Of a stretch of DNA of 64,000 nucleotides, positions 2,251-58,234 are shown piece by piece. Location of the stretch: assembly GCA_963813715.1 (NCBI GenBank), contig CAWFAK010000007.1, positions 864,001 through 928,000 on the forward strand, in the 5' to 3' direction. The position numbers were made by a program, and so were the translations under genes. Source of the stretch: an uncultured Planctomycetaceae bacterium (GTDB lineage Bacteria > Planctomycetota > Planctomycetia > Planctomycetales > Planctomycetaceae). The notes below the pieces were generated by a model. It was not told where the DNA came from and did not search any database. It saw nothing but the letters and a program-made list of their open reading frames with translations. Every line of letters begins with the position of its first letter. Within the stretch, counting starts at the first letter, position 1.

Positions 2251-3462
2251 ATGAAGGCGTTCTACGGAAAATTGAGCGGCCGGCTTTTTCTGCTCGGATT
2301 GCCGGCAGCAGCTGGTCTGTTGTTTTTAGTCCCTGCCGAAATCAAGGCGCAACTACCCGACGCCGCGCAAGCGACGGAGGCGAGGGGCAATGTCCAGCGC
2401 ATGACGACGACTCCACGGGGAGAGATCGATGGCGCCGTCCTCGATAACGGGACGGCGCTTCACTGGCCTCCCCACATGCAGGACCGATTCGCCAACCTCA
2501 TCAAACAGGGAGACCAGGTTCGGGCCACCGGGCGCTCGGAAACCGGCCCCGCCGGCGACACCCACTTCGAGATTCAGAATGTGACCAATCTCCGGACCAA
2601 CGTTACGGCCGAGAATCCGGATTTCGCAAATGGACCGCCGCTTCCTGGGCGAGGCCCGCGCGGACGAAGGCTGCCTCCGCCACCCCTTGGTTCAAATGCC
2701 GGGCTCGCATTGGACGCCCGAAATCAATCGTCCGCCATTAAGGTTCGCGGTGGTGTCCAACGTATGACCACCGCTCCGCGGGGAGAGATCGACGGAGCAG
2801 TTCTCGACAACGGAACGTGGCTCCATTGGCCGCCGCACATGCAGGCGCAATTCAGCAACGCGATCAAAGCGGGCGATCAGGTTCGAGCGAATCGGCGCAC
2901 AGAAACCGGCCCGGCTGGCGACACGCACTTCGAAGTCCAAAGCGTCACGAACCTGCGATCGAACGCGACGGCCGAGAATCCCGACTATGCATTCGGACCG
3001 CCATCTCCCCCGATCGGCCCGCAGGGTCCTGCGGGCCGGATGCCGCCGGGACCTGCTCCTGCCGGAAACTTCACCGAAGTCCGAGGCACGGTCCGCAGCA
3101 TGACGACGGCGCCACGCGGCGAAGTTGACGGCGCGATGCTGGATAACGGCACGTCGCTTCACTGGCCGCCGCACATGCAAGATCGATTCGCGGCCGCGAT
3201 CAAAGTGGGCGACCAGGTTCGAGCGACCGGGCGCACCGAGACTGGCCCGGCCGGCGATGGGCACTTTGAAGTCCAGAGCGTAACGAATGTGGGAACCAAC
3301 GCCACGGTCGCGAATCCCGATCTGGCGGGTGGCCCGGCAGGAGCGGCGCAGCCGATCATCCCGAATACCGCCATCGAACTGGAGCAAAGGTTACGAGACC
3401 TGGCAAACCAGGTTGAGCAATTACGTCGTGAAGTCGCCGAGCTTCGGGGCGCTAAGAAGTAA
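2251..3462 (+). CDS. Exported protein with three tandem ~80-aa OB-fold-like repeats and a C-terminal coiled coil
   Basis: GAGGAG RBS before ATG 2251; signal-peptide-like N-terminus; repeat RGxVxxMTTxPRGExDGAxLDNGTxLHWPPHMQ...ETGPAGDxHFExQxVTN x3 with Pro-rich linkers. Confidence 0.8.
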   Translation: MKAFYGKLSGRLFLLGLPAAAGLLFLVPAEIKAQLPDAAQATEARGNVQRMTTTPRGEIDGAVLDNGTALHWPPHMQDRFANLIKQGDQVRATGRSETGPAGDTHFEIQNVTNLRTNVTAENPDFANGPPLPGRGPRGRRLPPPPLGSNAGLALDARNQSSAIKVRGGVQRMTTAPRGEIDGAVLDNGTWLHWPPHMQAQFSNAIKAGDQVRANRRTETGPAGDTHFEVQSVTNLRSNATAENPDYAFGPPSPPIGPQGPAGRMPPGPAPAGNFTEVRGTVRSMTTAPRGEVDGAMLDNGTSLHWPPHMQDRFAAAIKVGDQVRATGRTETGPAGDGHFEVQSVTNVGTNATVANPDLAGGPAGAAQPIIPNTAIELEQRLRDLANQVEQLRREVAELRGAKK

Positions 3463-49118: not shown

Positions 49119-50228
49119 TCACAGCAGGTTTACGATGCGATCCGTCAGGCCCTTCTCGCCGACAACGACATTCAGCTTGCCGCTGCCGGCGATCTTTTCC
49201 AGAACTTCCAGCTCACGCAGCCGCATGAGCGTCGGGTTGTCCGCCAGCAGCTTGGCCGTGTTGGCCTGGCTGCGGATGGCGGCCGTCTCTTCGCGGCGGG
49301 CGATGAGGTTGGCCTCGGCGGCCTTCTTGGCCTCCGTCACCTTGTTCATCAGGTCCTTCATGTCGCCCGGCAGGATCACATCCCGGATGCCCACCGACGC
49401 GATTTCCAGACCCAACTCGCCCGCCCGACGGCGCACGCTCTCCTCGACGTCCCGCGCCACGGCGTCCTTGTCCGTGAGGAAGTTGTCGAGCTCGCGCGCA
49501 CCGATCACGCTCCGCAGCACCAGCTGCGTCTCGCGATAGAGCGCCTGACGCACGTCGTCCGTCTGGCTGACGGCCTGCCGTGCGTCGACGACCTTGTAGG
49601 TCACCACGGCATTCAGCCGCAGCGTGACCTTGTCGGCCGTCATGATCTCCTGACCGCCGACGTCGACCATCGTCTCGCGCAGGTCGACCTCGACCACGAG
49701 GGCCTCGGCCGGACCCTTCCAGAAGGCGTACTCGCCCGGCGCCAGCGTCTCGACATAGCGGCCGTCGACGAAGAGCACGCCCGCGCAGTCGCGCTTCACC
49801 GTGCACACGTCCAGGTACCGCTGCGCCCTCGCCGAGCGGACGATCGCCTTGAACTGGTCGTGCTCGAAGCGAACGTGCCGCGCGTCGAGCACCTCGACGT
49901 CGACCCGCTTCTGGCCCTTCCAGTACGCGTACTGGCCGCCGGCCAGCACGTGGGCGAAGCGACCCTCGATCCACACGAGAGCCCGCTCGTAGTCCTTGAG
50001 GTCGAGCACCACGGCGCGGTCGCCGAGCGCACCCGACTTCACGATCAGGTCGAGCTTCTCGTGCGAGAGCCACGTCGCCCGCCGCGACACGACGTCGACC
50101 GCCACCTTGCGGAGCGGGTCGATGAACCAGTGCGTACCCTGCTCGAGCACGCGGCGGAACTCGCCGTCGCGGAAGTAGAGACCCATCTCGTAGCTGCGGA
50201 TCTTGTAACGCTTGAAGACGAACATCAT
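49119..50228 (-). CDS. Slipin-family SPFH/band-7 protein
   Basis: GGAGGT RBS; repeated GL.F.DG....L..G...FW modules; QEIMTADKVTLRLNA, GIRDVILPG, NPTLMRLRELE. Confidence 0.92.
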   Translation of the reverse strand: MMFVFKRYKIRSYEMGLYFRDGEFRRVLEQGTHWFIDPLRKVAVDVVSRRATWLSHEKLDLIVKSGALGDRAVVLDLKDYERALVWIEGRFAHVLAGGQYAYWKGQKRVDVEVLDARHVRFEHDQFKAIVRSARAQRYLDVCTVKRDCAGVLFVDGRYVETLAPGEYAFWKGPAEALVVEVDLRETMVDVGGQEIMTADKVTLRLNAVVTYKVVDARQAVSQTDDVRQALYRETQLVLRSVIGARELDNFLTDKDAVARDVEESVRRRAGELGLEIASVGIRDVILPGDMKDLMNKVTEAKKAAEANLIARREETAAIRSQANTAKLLADNPTLMRLRELEVLEKIAGSGKLNVVVGEKGLTDRIVNLL

Positions 50229-50339
50229 CCACCTCCTTCCCGGAGGATTTCTGAACGAGCTAACCAAGTCAGCTCGCTGAACTTCAGCTGCGAGCGCGCT
50301 CTGCGTAAGGTTCAAGACCACTGACGAAACGAACAGGAG

Positions 50340-50717
50340 AATAAAGACGCCGTCAGAGGGAAAAACGTTCGCCGATCACACGCAAAAACGCGGAAGGCGT
50401 TTGAGCCGCGGGCTCGCTGGGCGTCGACGCGTCTCGAGAATCGCCTTCGTTCGACGGCGTGCCGTCGAACCCTCAGCGATTCCGTCCCCGCGCCGTTGCC
50501 GAACGAGCGTCACGGCGGAATCCGCGCCCTACAGGGCGTGTTTACGTGTTGCCCAGACACGCCCGGACCCGTTGCCGAAGCACCGCTTTCGCGATCCTCG
50601 GCGGTTTCCGGCACGTGACTGAAGCCGATCGAACGAGCGTTTTCCCTCCTCGGGCGTTGCGGCGCGGTCTTGCGACCGCGTCGTCTCGGTTTCGAGCTCG
50701 GTTAACAGCCGAGTGCT
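50340..50717 (-). ncRNA. Candidate large structured non-coding RNA between the tRNA array and slipin
   Basis: No convincing ORF; hairpins capped by GCAA, GAAA and TTCG; long-range helix 50634-50648 with 50356-50371; Asn-like anticodon stem-loop at 50697-50713. Confidence 0.55.
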
Positions 50718-50794
50718 TGGTGCTTGGTGCGGGAGTCGAACCCGCGACAGCCAGACCTTAAATCTGGTGCTCTTCCGACTGAGCTAACCGAAGT
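50718..50794 (-). tRNA. tRNA-Leu(TAA)-like, short variable loop, CCA encoded
   Basis: CCAGA-ttTAAgg-TCTGG; GCGGG-TTCGACT-CCCGC; bulged acceptor stem. Confidence 0.7.
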
Positions 50795-50899
50795 TGGTGA
50801 CGGCCGTTTTAGAACCCATGTCCGGAACACACGAACCTGATCCACGAGACCGCGTGCCAGTCTCGGGAGGCCCTTGCGCCGCTGGACGGGCCGACACCA
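50795..50899 (-). ncRNA. Candidate ~105-nt structured RNA (Y-RNA-like closed stem)
   Basis: 5' TGGTGTCGGCC pairs with 3' GGCCGTCACCA; internal hairpin CGAGAC/GTCTCG. Confidence 0.4.
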
Positions 50900-50918
50900 C
50901 CGAAGCAAGCCTGAAAAG

Positions 50919-50990
50919 AAACGCCGGTGGGAGTCGAACCCACTACAAGCCGCTTTGCAGGCGGCCGCCCTACCGTCTGGCTCCGGCGTT
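50919..50990 (-). tRNA. tRNA-Cys(GCA)
   Basis: GCCGC-ctGCAaa-GCGGC; U73. Confidence 0.88.
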
Positions 50991-51015
50991 AGATGCGTTT
51001 CAAAGATCTCAAAAA

Positions 51016-51087
51016 TGTCCTCGCCAGGATTCGGACCTGGTCCTCGACCTTCGCAGAGTCGCGTGCGATCCACCACACTCCGAGGAC
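51016..51087 (-). tRNA. tRNA-Arg(GCG)
   Basis: CGACT-ctGCGaa-GGTCG; variant T-loop TCCGAAT. Confidence 0.82.
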
Positions 51088-51108
51088 GTTGCGCACTTGT
51101 CGTGCGAG

Positions 51109-51635: not shown

Positions 51636-52232
51636 TCAACTCTCCAGCGGGACGTTCCAATACGCCTCGCTGATGAACTTCGACCAGCTCATCATCCGCT
51701 CGCTCGTCCGTGCGTAGAGCGGCTTCCAGGCCGGTCGCACCGGCTCCCGATGCAGCTTCATCCGTGCCTGCGCCGGCGTGCGGTCGGCCTTGTGCTTGTT
51801 GCAGTCGATGCACGCCAGCACGCAGTTCTCCCACGTCGAGACGCCCCCTTGCGAACGCGGCACAACGTGGTCGATCGTCAGCTCGGCTCCGCCCGGCTGA
51901 CGGCCGCAGTACTGGCACGTCCAATGATCGCGCTTGTGGATGTTCCGCCGGCTGAAGGCGACCGCGGCCGTCGGCAGCCGGTTGTACTCCGCCAGCACGA
52001 TCACCTCCGGCACGCGCAGCGTCGACCGCACGCACTGGATGAAGTCGTCACCGTCGGCCGGCCGCAGCCGCGACCAGTCGGCCCACGTGTAGAGCCGAAA
52101 ATCGCGCGGATCGACGACGCGGGCCGCCTCGTTCCACAACAGCACCAGCGCCCGGGCGACCGTCGCCACGTTCACGGGCTGCCAGTTGCGATTGAGGACC
52201 AGCGCCGGCCGCTGGAGCGTTCGCGTCGTCAT
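51636..52232 (-). CDS. HNH endonuclease (McrA-like, zinc-binding) embedded in the tRNA array
   Basis: LVLNRNWQP; FSRRNIHKRDHWTCQYCG...TIDHVVPRSQGG..TWENCVLACIDCNKHK; GGAGG RBS. Confidence 0.93.
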   Translation of the reverse strand: MTTRTLQRPALVLNRNWQPVNVATVARALVLLWNEAARVVDPRDFRLYTWADWSRLRPADGDDFIQCVRSTLRVPEVIVLAEYNRLPTAAVAFSRRNIHKRDHWTCQYCGRQPGGAELTIDHVVPRSQGGVSTWENCVLACIDCNKHKADRTPAQARMKLHREPVRPAWKPLYARTSERMMSWSKFISEAYWNVPLES

Positions 52233-55875: not shown

Positions 55876-58234
55876 TTAGTTCAGCCCCTTCTGCGCCTCG
55901 GCGTTCGAGGGGTCGATCGTCAGAACTTTCCGAAAGCAGTCCTTGGCCTGTTCGTCGCGGTCGAGTGATTTCAGCACCTGGCCGCGCAAGGTCAGCAGGT
56001 TGACCTGGTTCTTGAGCACATTCTCTCGCGTGGCCGGCATTCCCTTGGGGACCGCTTTTTGCCATTGGTCCGGGTGCTCGAGCAGGCGGGTCAGCATGGC
56101 GATGCCGACGCCCAGCTCGCGCTGTTCCTGCTCGCGTGCGTCGGGTGCGATTTCCACGTTGTTGATCTTGATGCCGTCGAGCCGATCCAGCACCTGGCTC
56201 AGAATCGCGTGCGAGCCGACGTCGTCGGGCGCGAGCCGCAGCCGCTGTAGCGTGAAGAAGTACGCCGCCACCGGATCGAGCGCGGCCAGCTTGATGCCTC
56301 CCTGCAGGTCGGCCGGCGTGTAGGGACGGGAGAAGCGATCGGCCAGGCCGACCTCCGCCTGGTTCACCTTGGAGATGCGTCGCCAGGCGACCTGGCGGGC
56401 GGCGTGCAGCTCCGCGCAGCCTGGATCGACCATCAGTCCCCGCTCGATCACGCGGTCGGCCAGTTGCTGATCGTAGAACACGGCTTCGACGTGCGCCCAA
56501 AGATAATAGACGCGCGGATCCATTGGCTCGAGCTTGAGCGCGAGATCCTCCACGGCCGCCACGCGCGGCGCGTCGTTGGTGCGAGTGAGCTGGTCCATGC
56601 GATCGGCAGCGGCCAGTTCGGCGGCCGTCGGCTGGCGGGTGTAGGTCGTCGTGGTGACTTCGACTTTTCCCCCGCCGATATTGCGCCGCGAGCTCGCCGA
56701 CCAGGTTTTCGGCAATCGCATGCGCTCGGCGCTCAGCAGGTTCTCGCTGCCGCGAACTCGGTTGTACTCCGCATAAATCATCAGTTGCAGCGGATCGGTC
56801 GGGTTGAGCGAATCCCCCTGCCCCAGCGCCGGGCCGTTCCCTCCGATCAGCCAGTTGAGCCGCGTGAGTTGCCGCTCGAACTCCAGGTCATTCTGCCCCA
56901 GTGCGCGGATCGCCTTGAGGGTGTCGCTCGCCCGCCGCAGATGCTTGGAAAAGACGTGCGTGTGCGGCGGGTCCTCCATTTTGTAGAGCCATTCGCCCGT
57001 CCGCAGGTTGAGCACCACGTGCGTCTGGTTGCGAGTGCCGAGCGCTTCCTTGGTGGTTTCGAACTGGCGATCGAACCAGAACTCACTCTTTCGGCCGTTG
57101 CCGATCTCGGTGACGACGGGGCTGGCGAGCGCCGTCTTTTTCTCGCGTTCGATCTCATCAACGAGCCGCTTGAAGAGGGCCACTTGCGGGCCGAGATCCT
57201 TCGGATCCTCTTTGACGGCCTGCTCGAGCGCCGCCAGCCCGCGGGTCGCGTCGTCGCGACGGACCGCTTCGACGCGCGTCCACCAGTCGGCCATCTTGTC
57301 GAGGGCCGTACGGATCTCGTCGTCGCTGCGGCCGTCGCGAACGAGGGCCCGCAAGCCGCGGCAAATGCTCTCCGACTTCTGCGCGACGGCCAGCTTGTCG
57401 AAGGTGCCGATCTGCTCGGCGGGCGAATCAAGCGGTATTTCTCCTTCGGGAAAGACAAACTCGCCGATGGGCGACGGCGGGATCAGTTTGTGGCGCGTGT
57501 AAATCTGCACACCGACAGCCGGCTCCCGCTTGGAGAGGGGCGCGCCGGTCGCCGCGTCGAGATATAAAAAAGTGCCGTAGGCCCGGTCGACGACGACGTC
57601 GCGATCGCGGACGGCCAGCATTCGCCAGACGACCTTGCCCTTGGGGGCGTGGGCCTCGGTGTCCGCCAGCTTGACGGGCAGGTGTCGCAGGACGCCGTAC
57701 AACGGATAGGACGTCGGCTCTTCGTTCGAGTTCACTGCGACGGGCGGCTCCGCACCGGGCCGCAGCAGCTGGACGTAAATTTGATCTTCGCGGACGGTGG
57801 GGGCCAGGTCCCACAGTCCGCGGACGGCTTCTTCAGGCGACAAGACACCGTCGGGCAGTGCTGCGGGTCTGGAGGAGGCGTCGAGCGCGTAGGGACTGTT
57901 GAACATCTTGCGGCCCTCGACTCGCACTTCGAGAGCCATCCCTTCGGCCTTCGGCGCGAAATACAAGAACCGTGCACCAACCGGTTCAAAGCGCGAGCGC
58001 GTGTAAGCGCCCCACAAATCGACGCGGAACAGCTTTGCGCCGGCATTCCAATTGACGGCAGCAGCGTTCGCCTGATTGCGAACCGCAGCAAACTCCTGCA
58101 GGCTGGCGGTGGGCTCGCCAGCGGACGGCGGCGACGGCGGCGATTGCTAACCTTGCAGTCGCAACCGCAAAGCCCAATGACAGCCAGGCGACGCGCAGGA
58201 AACGACGCGCCGCGAACCCGTGGCCCGTGTTCAT
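55876..58234 (-). CDS. Exported TPR-containing protein (frameshifted near the N-terminus)
   Basis: 713-aa ORF plus a signal-peptide-like segment from ATG 58234; C-terminal TPR LRGQVLKSLDRDEQAKDCFRKVLTIDPSNAEA. Confidence 0.7.

Follow-up and report, generated by a model that had tools for sequence, protein, structure and literature searches.

To our knowledge, few large and intricately folded bacterial RNAs exist, and nearly all of them have proved to be ribozymes or cores of ribonucleoproteins (RNPs). GOLLD and ROOL often lie beside tRNA genes. The vault particle includes an abundant small RNA, and vault RNA genes carry internal promoter boxes of the tRNA type. A tRNA-like fold need not decode: that of mascRNA, in MALAT1 and MEN-beta, sits inside a longer transcript. 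The other SPFH proteins that we know of form membrane-attached cages with protein cargo.

ROOL and GOLLD are reported to form homo-oligomeric cages (PMC12286853). The YrlA Y RNA is reported to contain a tRNA-like module and to be encoded beside the gene of its ring-shaped partner, Ro60/Rsr (PMC4201824). OLE RNA, of ~600 nt, is described as highly expressed and as working with dedicated proteins encoded nearby. The bacterial homologues of major vault protein (MVP) named in one preprint come from Myxococcales, Cytophagales and Oscillatoriales, and not from the slipin family (10.1101/872010). "Degenerate tRNA gene clusters" are reported for planctomycetes (PMC4807772).

Positions 50340-50717 of the window, that is of the whole 64,000-nt stretch analysed here, constitute on the minus strand the 3′ two-thirds of a larger structured non-coding RNA. 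The whole unit probably measures ~580 nt, from about 50917 down to about 50340. We read it as a stand-alone, stable and highly structured RNA of an undescribed family that would be partnered with slipin, the product of the next gene, and we give this reading a probability of roughly 45%. Our literature search, which covered abstracts and article texts, returned no link of a structured or tRNA-like RNA with SPFH proteins, stomatin or slipin, and no large planctomycete non-coding RNA. The features of the locus are as follows.

50918-50990, minus strand: tRNA-Cys(GCA), the last true tRNA of a 31-tRNA array (ARAGORN and Rfam).
50794-50917, minus strand: 5′ domain, or "spacer" (alignment of 43 homologues and RNAalifold).
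50718-50793, minus strand: embedded tRNA-like domain "tRNA-X" (ARAGORN "tRNA-Leu(taa)"; Rfam tRNA, 50.9 bits).
50697-50713, minus strand: anticodon-arm-like hairpin of 5 bp with the 7-nt loop CUGUUAA; most homologues have it, but with differing loop sequences.
50663-50680, minus strand: GNRA-capped hairpin CGCGGUC-GCAA-GACCGCG, its stem sequence differing among homologues.
50344-50659, minus strand: 316-nt core (alignments A1 and A2, RNAalifold, pair counts with controls).
50335-50347, minus strand: U-rich tail directly 3′ of helix P1, terminator-like.
50232-50246, minus strand: hairpin CCUCC-GGGAA-GGAGG, which pairs the slipin Shine-Dalgarno sequence; kept in the Planctomycetaceae subset only.
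49119-50228, minus strand: slipin gene, 369 aa, soluble SPFH/Band 7; conserved downstream neighbour of the RNA.

From 5′ to 3′, the RNA is thus built of a stem domain, the tRNA-like domain, two hairpins, the 316-nt core and the U-rich tail. The gene immediately upstream, tRNA-Cys(GCA), is the sole tRNA-Cys among 87 tRNAs detected in the host genome (G000) and has a single BLAST match each in G000, G003 and G237; at most homologous loci, tRNA-Cys precedes the RNA. The 5′ domain holds a conserved stem at about 50885-50816, with near-invariant CCAGCGGCG and GUGUUCCG..AUGG. Among the 43 homologues folded with RNAalifold, its outer pairs are 98-100% paired, and its variable inner hairpin covaries, with pairs swapping between CG, GC and AU.

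The core is closed, from the outside inward, by P1 (ACGCC/GGCGU), a tandem G.A internal loop, P2 (GGAGGGAAAACG / CGUUUUUCCCUC) and P3 (GAUCGG...). Inside P3 lies a variable 5′ branch with the GCGAAAGC hairpin, followed by a long irregular rod whose near-invariant segments are GGCARCA, UGYAG..CG.GGAUWCCGC, GCUCAAR, UCCGC and GUGUGA. The U-rich tail is likely the 3′ end region of the RNA. The 8 nt after P1 contain 4.4 T on average, and 56 of the 71 homologues have four or more; in the cores, T makes up 18%. Contigs from RNA libraries end nearby, at 50352 (X2, followed by adapter) and 50359 (X10). A simple terminator scan of 50100-51100 gave no hit, which says little in planctomycetes; the "stem" of the RNA there closes ~290 nt.

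The earlier note on this DNA, drawn from the letters alone, had described 50340-50717 as an undescribed, densely structured RNA beginning after the last tRNA. Its description of the RNA holds, with no Rfam match and strong covariation; its starting point has to be moved, since the unit takes in that "tRNA" and the ~125-nt spacer before it. All the hairpins it listed are found in the minus-strand sequence: CTCGG-CTGTTAA-CCGAG at 50713-50697, just past the last tRNA called by ARAGORN (50718-50793), CGCGGTC-GCAA-GACCGCG at 50680-50663, as well as CGC-GAAA-GCG, TGC-TTCG-GCA and GTTCGACGGC-AC-GCCGTCGAAC. The first of these had been likened to the anticodon arm of tRNA-Asn, but its loop varies among homologues, so it is no Asn mimic. 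The proposed long-range helix of GAGGGAAAACG.. with ..CGTTTTTCCCTC is present and covaries, although its span is ~290 nt and not 260. The local hairpin GGGCGTGT...ACACGCCC gives way in the consensus to long-range pairing of those bases with the GCGUUUUUGCGUGU side. In G000, the two loops could kiss through a UUAA/UUAA pair, which is missing from the further homologues that we examined visually.

With a minimum free energy of -207.8 kcal/mol, the region folds better than every one of 100 dinucleotide shuffles (-176.8 ± 5.9; z = -5.24). We aligned homologues with MAFFT and HMMER profiles, guided by sequence and not by structure. Alignment A1 (12 sequences) has 88 pairs, 41 of them with a compensatory change. 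In alignment A2 (71 distinct sequences, 464 columns, 87 pairs), 84.0% of cells are paired, compared with 36.2-42.8% when the partners are slid, and the covariation score is 0.422 versus 0.089-0.117 in the slid controls. Compensatory changes occur in 73 of the 87 pairs, and none of 500 shuffles matches the paired fraction and the score. Covariation extends over the closing helix, the hairpin of GTTCGACGGC and the rod that lies between. At the level of comparative analysis, covariation demonstrates the RNA structure.

We give hardly any credence to the opposite view, in which there is no RNA gene and the conservation comes from a protein-coding region or a DNA-level element. Short ORFs do exist on both strands. 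They do not exceed 100 aa, apart from one 174-aa frame running in from the tRNA array, in line with the earlier statement that no ORF here is credible. Homologues carry indels of 1-2 nt within conserved blocks, and such lengths, not being multiples of three, argue against coding. The compensatory changes come with abundant G-U pairs that are compatible with the minus strand only, and contigs from RNA libraries cover the region.

Even with permissive filters and a limit of E ≤ 10, no Rfam 15 family matched 50340-50717, and none did at gathering score. GOLLD, ROOL, OLE, HEARO, raiA and the other Rfam 15 families gave no covariance-model match at gathering score. The sot0042 model reached 15.1 bits on the plus strand, against a cut-off of 88. 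Matches to mascRNA, tymovirus-TLS and Plastid-ycf2 fall over tRNAs or far below cut-off; the one to mascRNA is partial, has 16 bits and lies inside tRNA-Cys. A housekeeping RNA in disguise was also discarded: tmRNA (C17, 167.9 bits), RNase P RNA (C5, 281) and 6S RNA (C16, 47.6) each score above cut-off elsewhere in the genome.

The tRNA-like domain at 50718-50793 retains an intact D-arm, anticodon arm and T-arm, and its cloverleaf is recognised by the tRNA model (RF00005) with the 50.9 bits listed above, including two acceptor mismatches in the window. In nearly all of 49 parsed planctomycete homologues, both the anticodon stem and the T stem form. A complete 7-pair acceptor stem occurs in a single one, the inner 3 pairs alone being conserved, and CCA is encoded in 14. 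The anticodon loop stays at 7 nt, with Y32 in 48, U33 in 34 and R37 in 47 of the 49, and it carries 25 different anticodon triplets, which drift even within one genus. What the domain lacks of a tRNA is therefore a usable 7-bp acceptor stem and 3′ end, and a conserved anticodon. Acidobacterial relatives retain a 6-bp acceptor helix. Pairing of an internal "codon" with the free anticodon was considered and rejected: at most 4 of 44 sequences agree per core column, and shuffled assignments give 3-7.

Contigs cross 50717/50718 and join this domain to the downstream RNA. The "last tRNA" that the earlier note had placed before the RNA is a domain of the RNA itself, and no tRNA gene. tRNA finders assign it random identities (Leu, Ile, Thr, "Stop", "Pyl", "???"), so the tRNA annotation of carrier genomes needs correcting.

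Several studies have this RNA in their RNA libraries, in contigs that join its tRNA-like domain to its core. Twenty RNA runs from 17 studies contain 32-68% of its sampled words. Metatranscriptome contigs from soil and rhizosphere (4 studies), which carry no strand and no true ends, span 50352-50896. The junction between tRNA-like domain and core is bridged by a 450-nt X10 contig (50359-50807) and a 433-nt X2 contig (50352-50759), and the 5′ domain is covered by contigs at 50730-50896 (X2) and 50778-50869 (X6). X2 contigs run into sequencing adapter at 50352 and 50896. That the contigs carry the RNA on into the last "tRNA" and into the spacer that follows tRNA-Cys is as expected from the cotranscription with the array that had been proposed. 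The segment 50185-50332 is free of contigs in four runs, and the slipin coding sequence appears only in an X1 contig of its own (50000-50145) and in an incomplete X10 fragment; such absence of cover cannot rank genes. Nor can the per-contig depths of the RNA (85.8, 33.2, 10.7 and 6.3), which we did not use as evidence. Position 50807 is where two contigs of X6 and two of X10 break off; with RNA runs only, this can be no more than a faint indication of an end.

Adjacency of the RNA to slipin is near-obligatory among planctomycetes, which bears out the slipin neighbourhood named at the outset. In a set of 114 slipin loci, including places represented twice and containing 87 distinct RNA sequences, the RNA lies upstream of slipin in 100 with the A1 HMM and in 104 with the A2 HMM. 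The remaining 10 have no match to the A2 HMM; two of them have less than 300 nt of upstream flank. The reverse search, from the RNA motif alone, finds a same-strand slipin in 61 of 69 RNA loci, with flanks of ~500 nt. The gap between RNA and slipin is 31-126 nt in many loci and exceeds 1 kb in some. In one Pirellulales genome, a full-length RNA is separated from slipin by an opposite-strand gene of 243 aa with a Pfam Poly_export match (30.9 bits against a cut-off of 28). Other neighbours are conserved within the genus at most.

In G005 and G237, the tRNA array is lost or reduced, and RNA and slipin are still together. An HNH gene occurs in the arrays of G000, G003 and G348; it is missing near the RNA in G005 and G237 and hence lies outside the unit. 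A defence system was rejected as well: the HNH gene has generic HNH matches only, and slipin has no PADLOC defence-system match.

Slipin relatives in Acidobacteriota, Alphaproteobacteria and other phyla are likewise preceded by a tRNA-like element and a structured RNA, at 56 of the 71 loci with at least 1000 nt upstream; the tRNA-like call is missing at 15. These tRNA or tRNA-like elements lie on the same strand, 180-862 nt before the start codon, and the 56 loci receive 33 different "anticodon" calls, some of 2 or 4 nt. In Acidobacteriota, the tRNA-like element alone precedes the RNA, and in Alphaproteobacteria there is a good tRNA upstream. The 19 acidobacterial RNAs are 90.9% paired, versus 39.5-48.2% when slid, and 31 of their 45 pairs are compensatory. 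The GUGUUCC motif of the 5′ domain recurs upstream of the tRNA-like element in Sphingomonas and other loci.

With nhmmer, the planctomycete core profile found no credible match in the other-phyla loci (best E 0.24), and 20 of these loci gave only tRNA matches in Rfam. Since the core cannot be aligned by sequence across phyla, our claim of kinship is limited to the architecture, the tRNA-like body and the 5′ motif. The tRNA array is a planctomycete-specific setting of the RNA. The array context given earlier to this locus is correct for planctomycetes, but other phyla have the RNA-slipin pair without an array, so the pairing itself is the core of the system.

Slipin matches Pfam Band_7 with an E-value of 1.1e-29 (104.2 bits, cut-off 23.6). 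Its AF2 model, with a pLDDT of 83, has three tandem 5-strand β repeats (residues 5-48, 72-115 and 139-182), an SPFH α/β core and then a long helix (288-349). Stomatin SPFH domains align to the model with Z 16-17 and an rmsd of 1.3-1.4, which identifies the SPFH fold. Stomatin, prohibitin and HflK/C chains align over residues ~115-360 only; MVP chains (residues 322-690/719) are the only matches over slipin residues 6-330/360, with Z 10.6-11.7 and an rmsd of 8-10 Å, so that the likeness is one of architecture. β repeats, an SPFH-like shoulder and a cap helix, the architecture of vault proteins, are combined in one chain of the model. The build predicted for slipin is shared by SPFH proteins that assemble into rings or cages and by MVP in its C-terminal half. 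A Pfam search, even at E ≤ 10, returned Band_7 families only, with no Vault repeat, MVP shoulder or recognised RNA-binding domain.

In the reading that we prefer, the host would produce the RNA from the end of its tRNA operon, immediately 3′ of the sole tRNA-Cys gene. Its 5′ end may be created by the 3′ processing of tRNA-Cys, and the closing helix of the core may form with the U-rich tail a terminator-like 3′ end that protects it. The RNA would act together with soluble SPFH slipin, as a bound scaffold, a cargo or a regulator of a slipin particle. Its tRNA-like domain could be a generic handle for tRNA-processing or tRNA-binding factors rather than a decoder. Going further, slipin could close into an MVP-like shell of a bacterial vault-like RNP, with the tRNA-like RNA as its RNA component and as the functional, possibly evolutionary, counterpart of vault RNA; the pair would then be ancient, across at least Planctomycetota, Acidobacteriota and Alphaproteobacteria. 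This extension we regard as unlikely.

The main rival, doubtful though still to be taken seriously, is that the RNA is a cis-acting leader or attenuator, namely the 5′ leader of the slipin mRNA. The closing helix and U tract would then be a regulated terminator, and the abundant species a prematurely terminated leader; a signal such as a tRNA-binding factor on the tRNA-like domain, or translational stress, would permit read-through into slipin. Strand and position immediately upstream of slipin are those of a leader, and the helix is followed by the U-rich tail in the 56 of 71 homologues counted above. The short gaps of many loci offer scant space for a separate promoter; in the window, there is no sigma-70-like promoter between RNA and slipin, nor anywhere in 50100-51100, but the scan was of sigma-70 type only and is uninformative for planctomycetes, whose promoters may differ. 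The hairpin that sequesters the Shine-Dalgarno sequence in Planctomycetaceae leaders would also fit; it is unconserved outside this one family, being absent from the Pirellulales, Gemmataceae and Isosphaeraceae examples. A leader is harder to reconcile with the opposite-strand gene that separates an intact RNA from slipin in at least one genome, or with gaps of more than 1 kb. Moreover, known attenuators manage with far less than ~580 nt, a tRNA-like domain and some 40 near-invariant positions.

It is improbable that the RNA is instead the tail of a tRNA operon, serving as terminator, 3′ stabiliser or processing platform for the precursor of tRNA-Cys or of the array, with slipin only co-regulated or syntenic. 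Its place at the 3′ end of the array, behind tRNA-Cys in planctomycetes or a good tRNA in Alphaproteobacteria, and its U-rich tail would suit such a role, and RNase P or RNase Z might be drawn in by the tRNA-like domain. However, RNA and slipin remain joined in the two genomes where the array is lost or reduced, Acidobacteriota have only the tRNA-like element itself before the RNA, and slipin stays the same while the tRNA upstream differs among loci (Cys, Asp, Arg, Lys, Pro and others), in a gene order otherwise unconserved beyond the genus. Quite improbable, too, is a tRNA mimic that acts as a decoy or sponge for tRNA-targeting nucleases or tRNA-binding enzymes, including the earlier ideas of a nuclease decoy and an RtcB substrate. 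The elbow and anticodon arm are intact, the 7-nt loop mostly keeps Y32, U33 and R37, a second anticodon-arm-like hairpin exists, and the RNA is found in RNA libraries of many studies. Yet the triplet is free to drift inside a genus, a poor fit to a decoy for a sequence-specific anticodon nuclease; slipin is without a PADLOC match, and a decoy would leave the conserved 316-nt core and the link to slipin unexplained.

Compared with the systems described so far, the RNA resembles ROOL and GOLLD in its size of several hundred nt, its multi-branched fold, its many conserved positions and its adjoining tRNA genes. Unlike them, it is chromosomal, vertically conserved in a bacterial class and not linked to phages or prophages; it has an embedded tRNA-like domain and a constant protein-gene partner in slipin, and does not match their Rfam models. 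This partner, constant across phyla, gives a testable handle, which GOLLD and ROOL are without. With OLE it shares a large structured RNA and a nearby protein gene; it differs in giving no Rfam match and in its soluble SPFH partner. OLE, in Gram-positive extremophiles, works with OapA and further membrane proteins. The tRNA-like part of mascRNA is cut off; here, in contrast, contigs join it to the core.

T-box leaders are likewise long, structured, tRNA-related RNAs upstream of a gene, and the segment GUGGAUACCGC of many homologues recalls the T-box sequence. The gene downstream is, however, neither an aminoacyl-tRNA synthetase nor an amino-acid gene. The UGG of GUGGAUACCGC is CGG or CAG in the genus of the window, so pairing with a tRNA 3′ end is not conserved. 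We rejected a T-box: there is no Rfam match, and covariation of the anticodon with any triplet stays at the shuffle level (4 of 44 at best).

As with YrlA and Ro60, a tRNA-like module is part of a non-coding RNA that is encoded beside its putative protein partner. Here an SPFH protein takes the place of Ro60, the module has kept its anticodon arm and lost its acceptor stem, and the RNA is several times larger; TROVE/Ro60 (PF05731) has no match in G000, a genome 82.6% complete. This anatomy, a tRNA-like domain with a free anticodon and no acceptor stem inside an RNA of ~580 nt, is unusual. Cultured carriers include Adhaeretor mobilis HG15A2, Lacipirellula limnantheis I41, Planctomicrobium sp. 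SH664, Aeoliella sp. SH292, Sphingomonas sp. MS122, Bosea sp. BK604 and Pelagibius marinus.

As in vault MVP, β repeats are followed in slipin by an SPFH-like shoulder and a long helix, but slipin has 369 aa and 3 repeats where MVP has ~860 aa and 9 repeats. The RNA is of ~580 nt and not ~100 nt, and TEP1/TROVE was not found in the 82.6% complete G000. The vault is an RNA-protein particle; that of slipin and the RNA is hypothetical. If such an RNA-SPFH particle is real, it would represent a novel type of RNP in bacteria, with a bearing on how vaults arose.

The window carries a conserved structured RNA on its minus strand, directly after an array of 32 tRNA genes (ARAGORN, 55431 down to 50718) and before a slipin gene. 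The features of the locus are as follows:

51636-52232, minus strand: HNH gene, 198 aa (Pfam HNH, 3.7e-15), in the array gap between tRNA-Trp and tRNA-His
50918-50990, minus strand: tRNA-Cys(GCA), called by ARAGORN
50340-50717, minus strand: flagged interval, directly after the tRNA run and before slipin
49119-50228, minus strand: slipin gene, 369 aa, with a Pfam Band_7 domain

The hairpins listed for the interval in an earlier note are all present in the sequence, and the dense folding it described is borne out: the folding energy of a 421-nt stretch is -207.8 kcal/mol, whereas shuffles give -176.8 +/- 5.9 (z = -5.24). The Rfam comparison it proposed, run against Rfam 15, gave no family for the flagged region, even with the threshold relaxed from gathering score to E <= 10; judged by this search, the RNA has no Rfam family. 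We found no description of it in the literature. Planctomycete 'degenerate tRNA gene clusters' are already in print (PMC4807772), and the available portion of that paper mentions neither the RNA nor slipin alongside them.

The covariation on which the earlier note had staked its RNA is found in homologues. A 12-sequence alignment yields 88 consensus pairs, of which 41 show compensatory change. In a second alignment of 71 distinct full cores (269-377 nt; consensus by RNAalifold), standard pairs fill 84.0% of 6081 cells, compared with 36.2-42.8% in controls that have the 3' partners slid by 1-3 columns; covariation scores 0.422, compared with 0.089-0.117 in these controls, and 73 of the 87 consensus pairs change on both sides. 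None of 500 column shuffles matched any observed value. From the outside in, the core consists of helix P1, a tandem G.A internal loop, P2 (10-12 bp) and P3; further in, a variable 5' branch precedes a long, irregular rod in which some segments are near-invariant. One of the listed hairpins, GGGCGTGT/ACACGCCC, exists but is superseded by long-range pairs in the consensus.

The RNA had been placed beside the last tRNA of the array; the RNA is real, but this 'last tRNA' (50718-50793) is its own tRNA-like domain. Its body is kept in all homologues and its anticodon differs almost everywhere, with 25 different triplets among the 49 homologues that were parsed. These retain an intact D-arm, anticodon stem and T-arm, whereas only the inner three pairs of the acceptor stem are conserved (all seven form in 1/49) and CCA follows in 14/49. 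With intact arms, a reduced acceptor stem and a drifting anticodon, this is thus a tRNA-like domain of the RNA and no decoder. The conserved spacer of ~125 nt between tRNA-Cys and this domain folds as a stem whose outer pairs are invariant and whose inner hairpin covaries. On the other side, the 8 nt 3' of P1 hold on average 4.4 T, and 56 of 71 homologues have 4 or more there (the cores are 18% T).

Between 32 and 68% of sampled words of an 851-nt query occur in 20 RNA-library runs from 17 soil or rhizosphere metatranscriptome studies, and contigs from four runs of four studies were aligned to the region. Run X10 gave a 450-nt contig wholly on 50359-50807; X2 a 433-nt contig on 50352-50759 and a 189-nt contig on 50730-50896, which run into sequencing adapter at 50352 and 50896, respectively; X6 contigs on 50471-50773 and 50778-50869; and X1 a 1319-nt contig on 50327-51089 with unlike flanks. 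Being contigs rather than reads, they come without strand, proven ends, depth ranking or DNA-run control; they span the junction of tRNA-like domain and core and extend into the spacer. The RNA is therefore present in RNA libraries with its tRNA-like domain attached. Together, the conserved domain and spacer, the T-rich 3' side and the contig extents make about 50917 to about 50340, roughly 580 nt, the probable span of the unit.

The RNA is near-obligatorily paired with slipin in several phyla. By BLAST, 8 of the 11 other genomes in the genus have the region, and at family level 54 of 398 do, the window's own included. The slipin protein retrieved 461 relatives, the best 80 of which were kept. 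In the 114 slipin loci examined, the RNA profile matches just upstream of slipin in 100 (first profile) or 104 (second profile); some places are counted twice among the 114, and distinct RNA sequences number 87. A slipin-independent motif search returned 98 places in 185,579 species genomes. Of the 80 examined, 69 hold the full RNA, and 61 of these 69 have a same-strand slipin within the flank examined. Almost all of their titles name Planctomycetota (Planctomycetaceae, Pirellulales, Lacipirellulaceae, Thermoguttaceae, Gemmataceae, Isosphaeraceae), apart from two short contigs labelled Kuenenia and a few oddly labelled MAGs. Nine of the 80 places, most titled outside Planctomycetota, have no profile match; with two weak partial matches they fit the ~17 chance matches expected by our arithmetic.

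Full-length RNA with slipin also stands under the MAG labels Methanoregulaceae archaeon (L161), Gammaproteobacteria (L132), Entotheonella (L200) and Kuenenia (L169/L207). These are probably mis-binned planctomycete contigs, which bear on bin quality; the Kuenenia case might be real. Several MAGs hold two RNA copies (L164/L165 on DATKBV010000232.1, L044/L047 in CAZAGI01, L139/L203, L141/L174, L146/L196). Each copy has its own slipin where both flanks are available, and in one MAG the copies lie ~3.2 kb apart on a single contig; RNA and slipin thus seem to be duplicated together. At L148 and L155 the 5' half of the profile alone matches, and next to it stands a slipin frame of which the C-terminal third is left; a single deletion seems to have taken out the 3' half of the RNA along with most of slipin.

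Beyond Planctomycetota, a Solibacteraceae relative of slipin (35% identity, full length) has a 'tRNA-Ile(aat)' ~225 nt upstream, then a region with a closing long-range helix and a U tract. The best 80 of its 553 relatives come from Acidobacteriota, many Alphaproteobacteria (Pelagibius, Denitrobaculum, Sphingomonas, Bosea, others), Bacteroidota, Moduliflexus and others. Where at least 1000 nt of upstream sequence exists, 56 of 71 loci have a same-strand tRNA or tRNA-like element 180-862 nt before the start codon, with 33 different 'anticodons', many in 2- or 4-nt loops. Alphaproteobacterial loci have two elements in a row: a good tRNA, whose identity varies, and then one that fits the tRNA model only at positions 4-67. 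Rfam matched nothing besides tRNA in 20 other-phyla loci. Nineteen acidobacterial RNAs share 45 pairs, 31 of them compensatory, with 90.9% paired against 39.5-48.2% when slid. The planctomycete core profile does not detect the RNAs of other phyla, but their loci do repeat the tRNA-like body and the 5' motif GUGUUCC, as in Sphingomonas; what the phyla share is therefore architecture and the slipin partner. At one Bryobacterales locus (L252, CBDBKC010000038.1), eight tRNA genes (Trp, Met, Arg, Phe, Asn, Cys, Gln, Asp; 2497-3334) lie just downstream of slipin, with tRNA-like element and RNA upstream of it.

Not everything in the array is redundant: among 87 tRNAs (ARAGORN) no tRNA-Cys is detected besides its tRNA-Cys(GCA), since none of the 55 dispersed ones is tRNA-Cys, and BLAST finds a single match each in the window's genome, G003 and G237. 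Two dispersed tRNAs on contig C8, beyond the window, are called by ARAGORN as a 'tRNA-Stop(tta)' and a tRNA-Ile(tat) (182792-182863 and 418596-418667); the former may be a tRNA of the suppressor type or a further tRNA-like element. The HNH gene sits at the equivalent array position in G003 (93% identity) and G348 (57%), has a 66% paralogue on contig C9 of the window's genome, and has the HNH part of IscB/Cas9 as its top, sub-threshold NCBIfam matches. Directly upstream of the array, a 713-aa protein with C-terminal TPR (55876-58017, minus strand) has a 63% paralogue at C8:715-2865 and was not found near arrays in four other genomes checked. In Planctomycetaceae loci, and not in other orders, the slipin Shine-Dalgarno is paired in a hairpin, CCUCC-GGGAA-GGAGG (50232-50246, minus strand), which suggests translational control of slipin there.

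We favour a stand-alone RNA partnered with slipin, at a probability of about 0.45. Its 5' end would arise from tRNA processing and its 3' end from the closing helix and U tail, and it may act as partner of a slipin assembly. A cis-acting leader of slipin is a less likely account; the RNA lies just upstream of slipin at most loci, and in one Pirellulales genome an opposite-strand 243-aa gene, matching Pfam Poly_export above cut-off, separates the full-length RNA from slipin.

That the RNA is a tail element of the tRNA operon is quite unlikely. The conserved module is tRNA-Cys, RNA and slipin, without conservation of the HNH gene or the genes after slipin; a genus member (G005) has lost the array and kept the module, and a genome of another genus (G237) has kept five tRNAs plus the module. 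A tRNA decoy, which would depend on the tRNA-like domain, we hold to be highly improbable, and a non-RNA explanation has a negligible chance beside the covariation and the abundant G-U pairs, compatible with the minus strand only.

In the AF2 model of slipin (pLDDT 83), three tandem beta units of five strands each are followed by an SPFH alpha/beta core and then by a long helix; no hydrophobic membrane segment is seen in the sequence, and the N-terminal units weakly repeat the start of the Band_7 profile. Our boldest reading, a bacterial vault-like ribonucleoprotein, is a long shot. [quoted passage not shown] Stomatin, prohibitin and HflK/C chains align with the model from about residue 115 on, whereas MVP alone among the aligned chains covers slipin residues 6 to 330-360 (MVP 322-719; Z 10.6-11.7, rmsd 8-10 Å).
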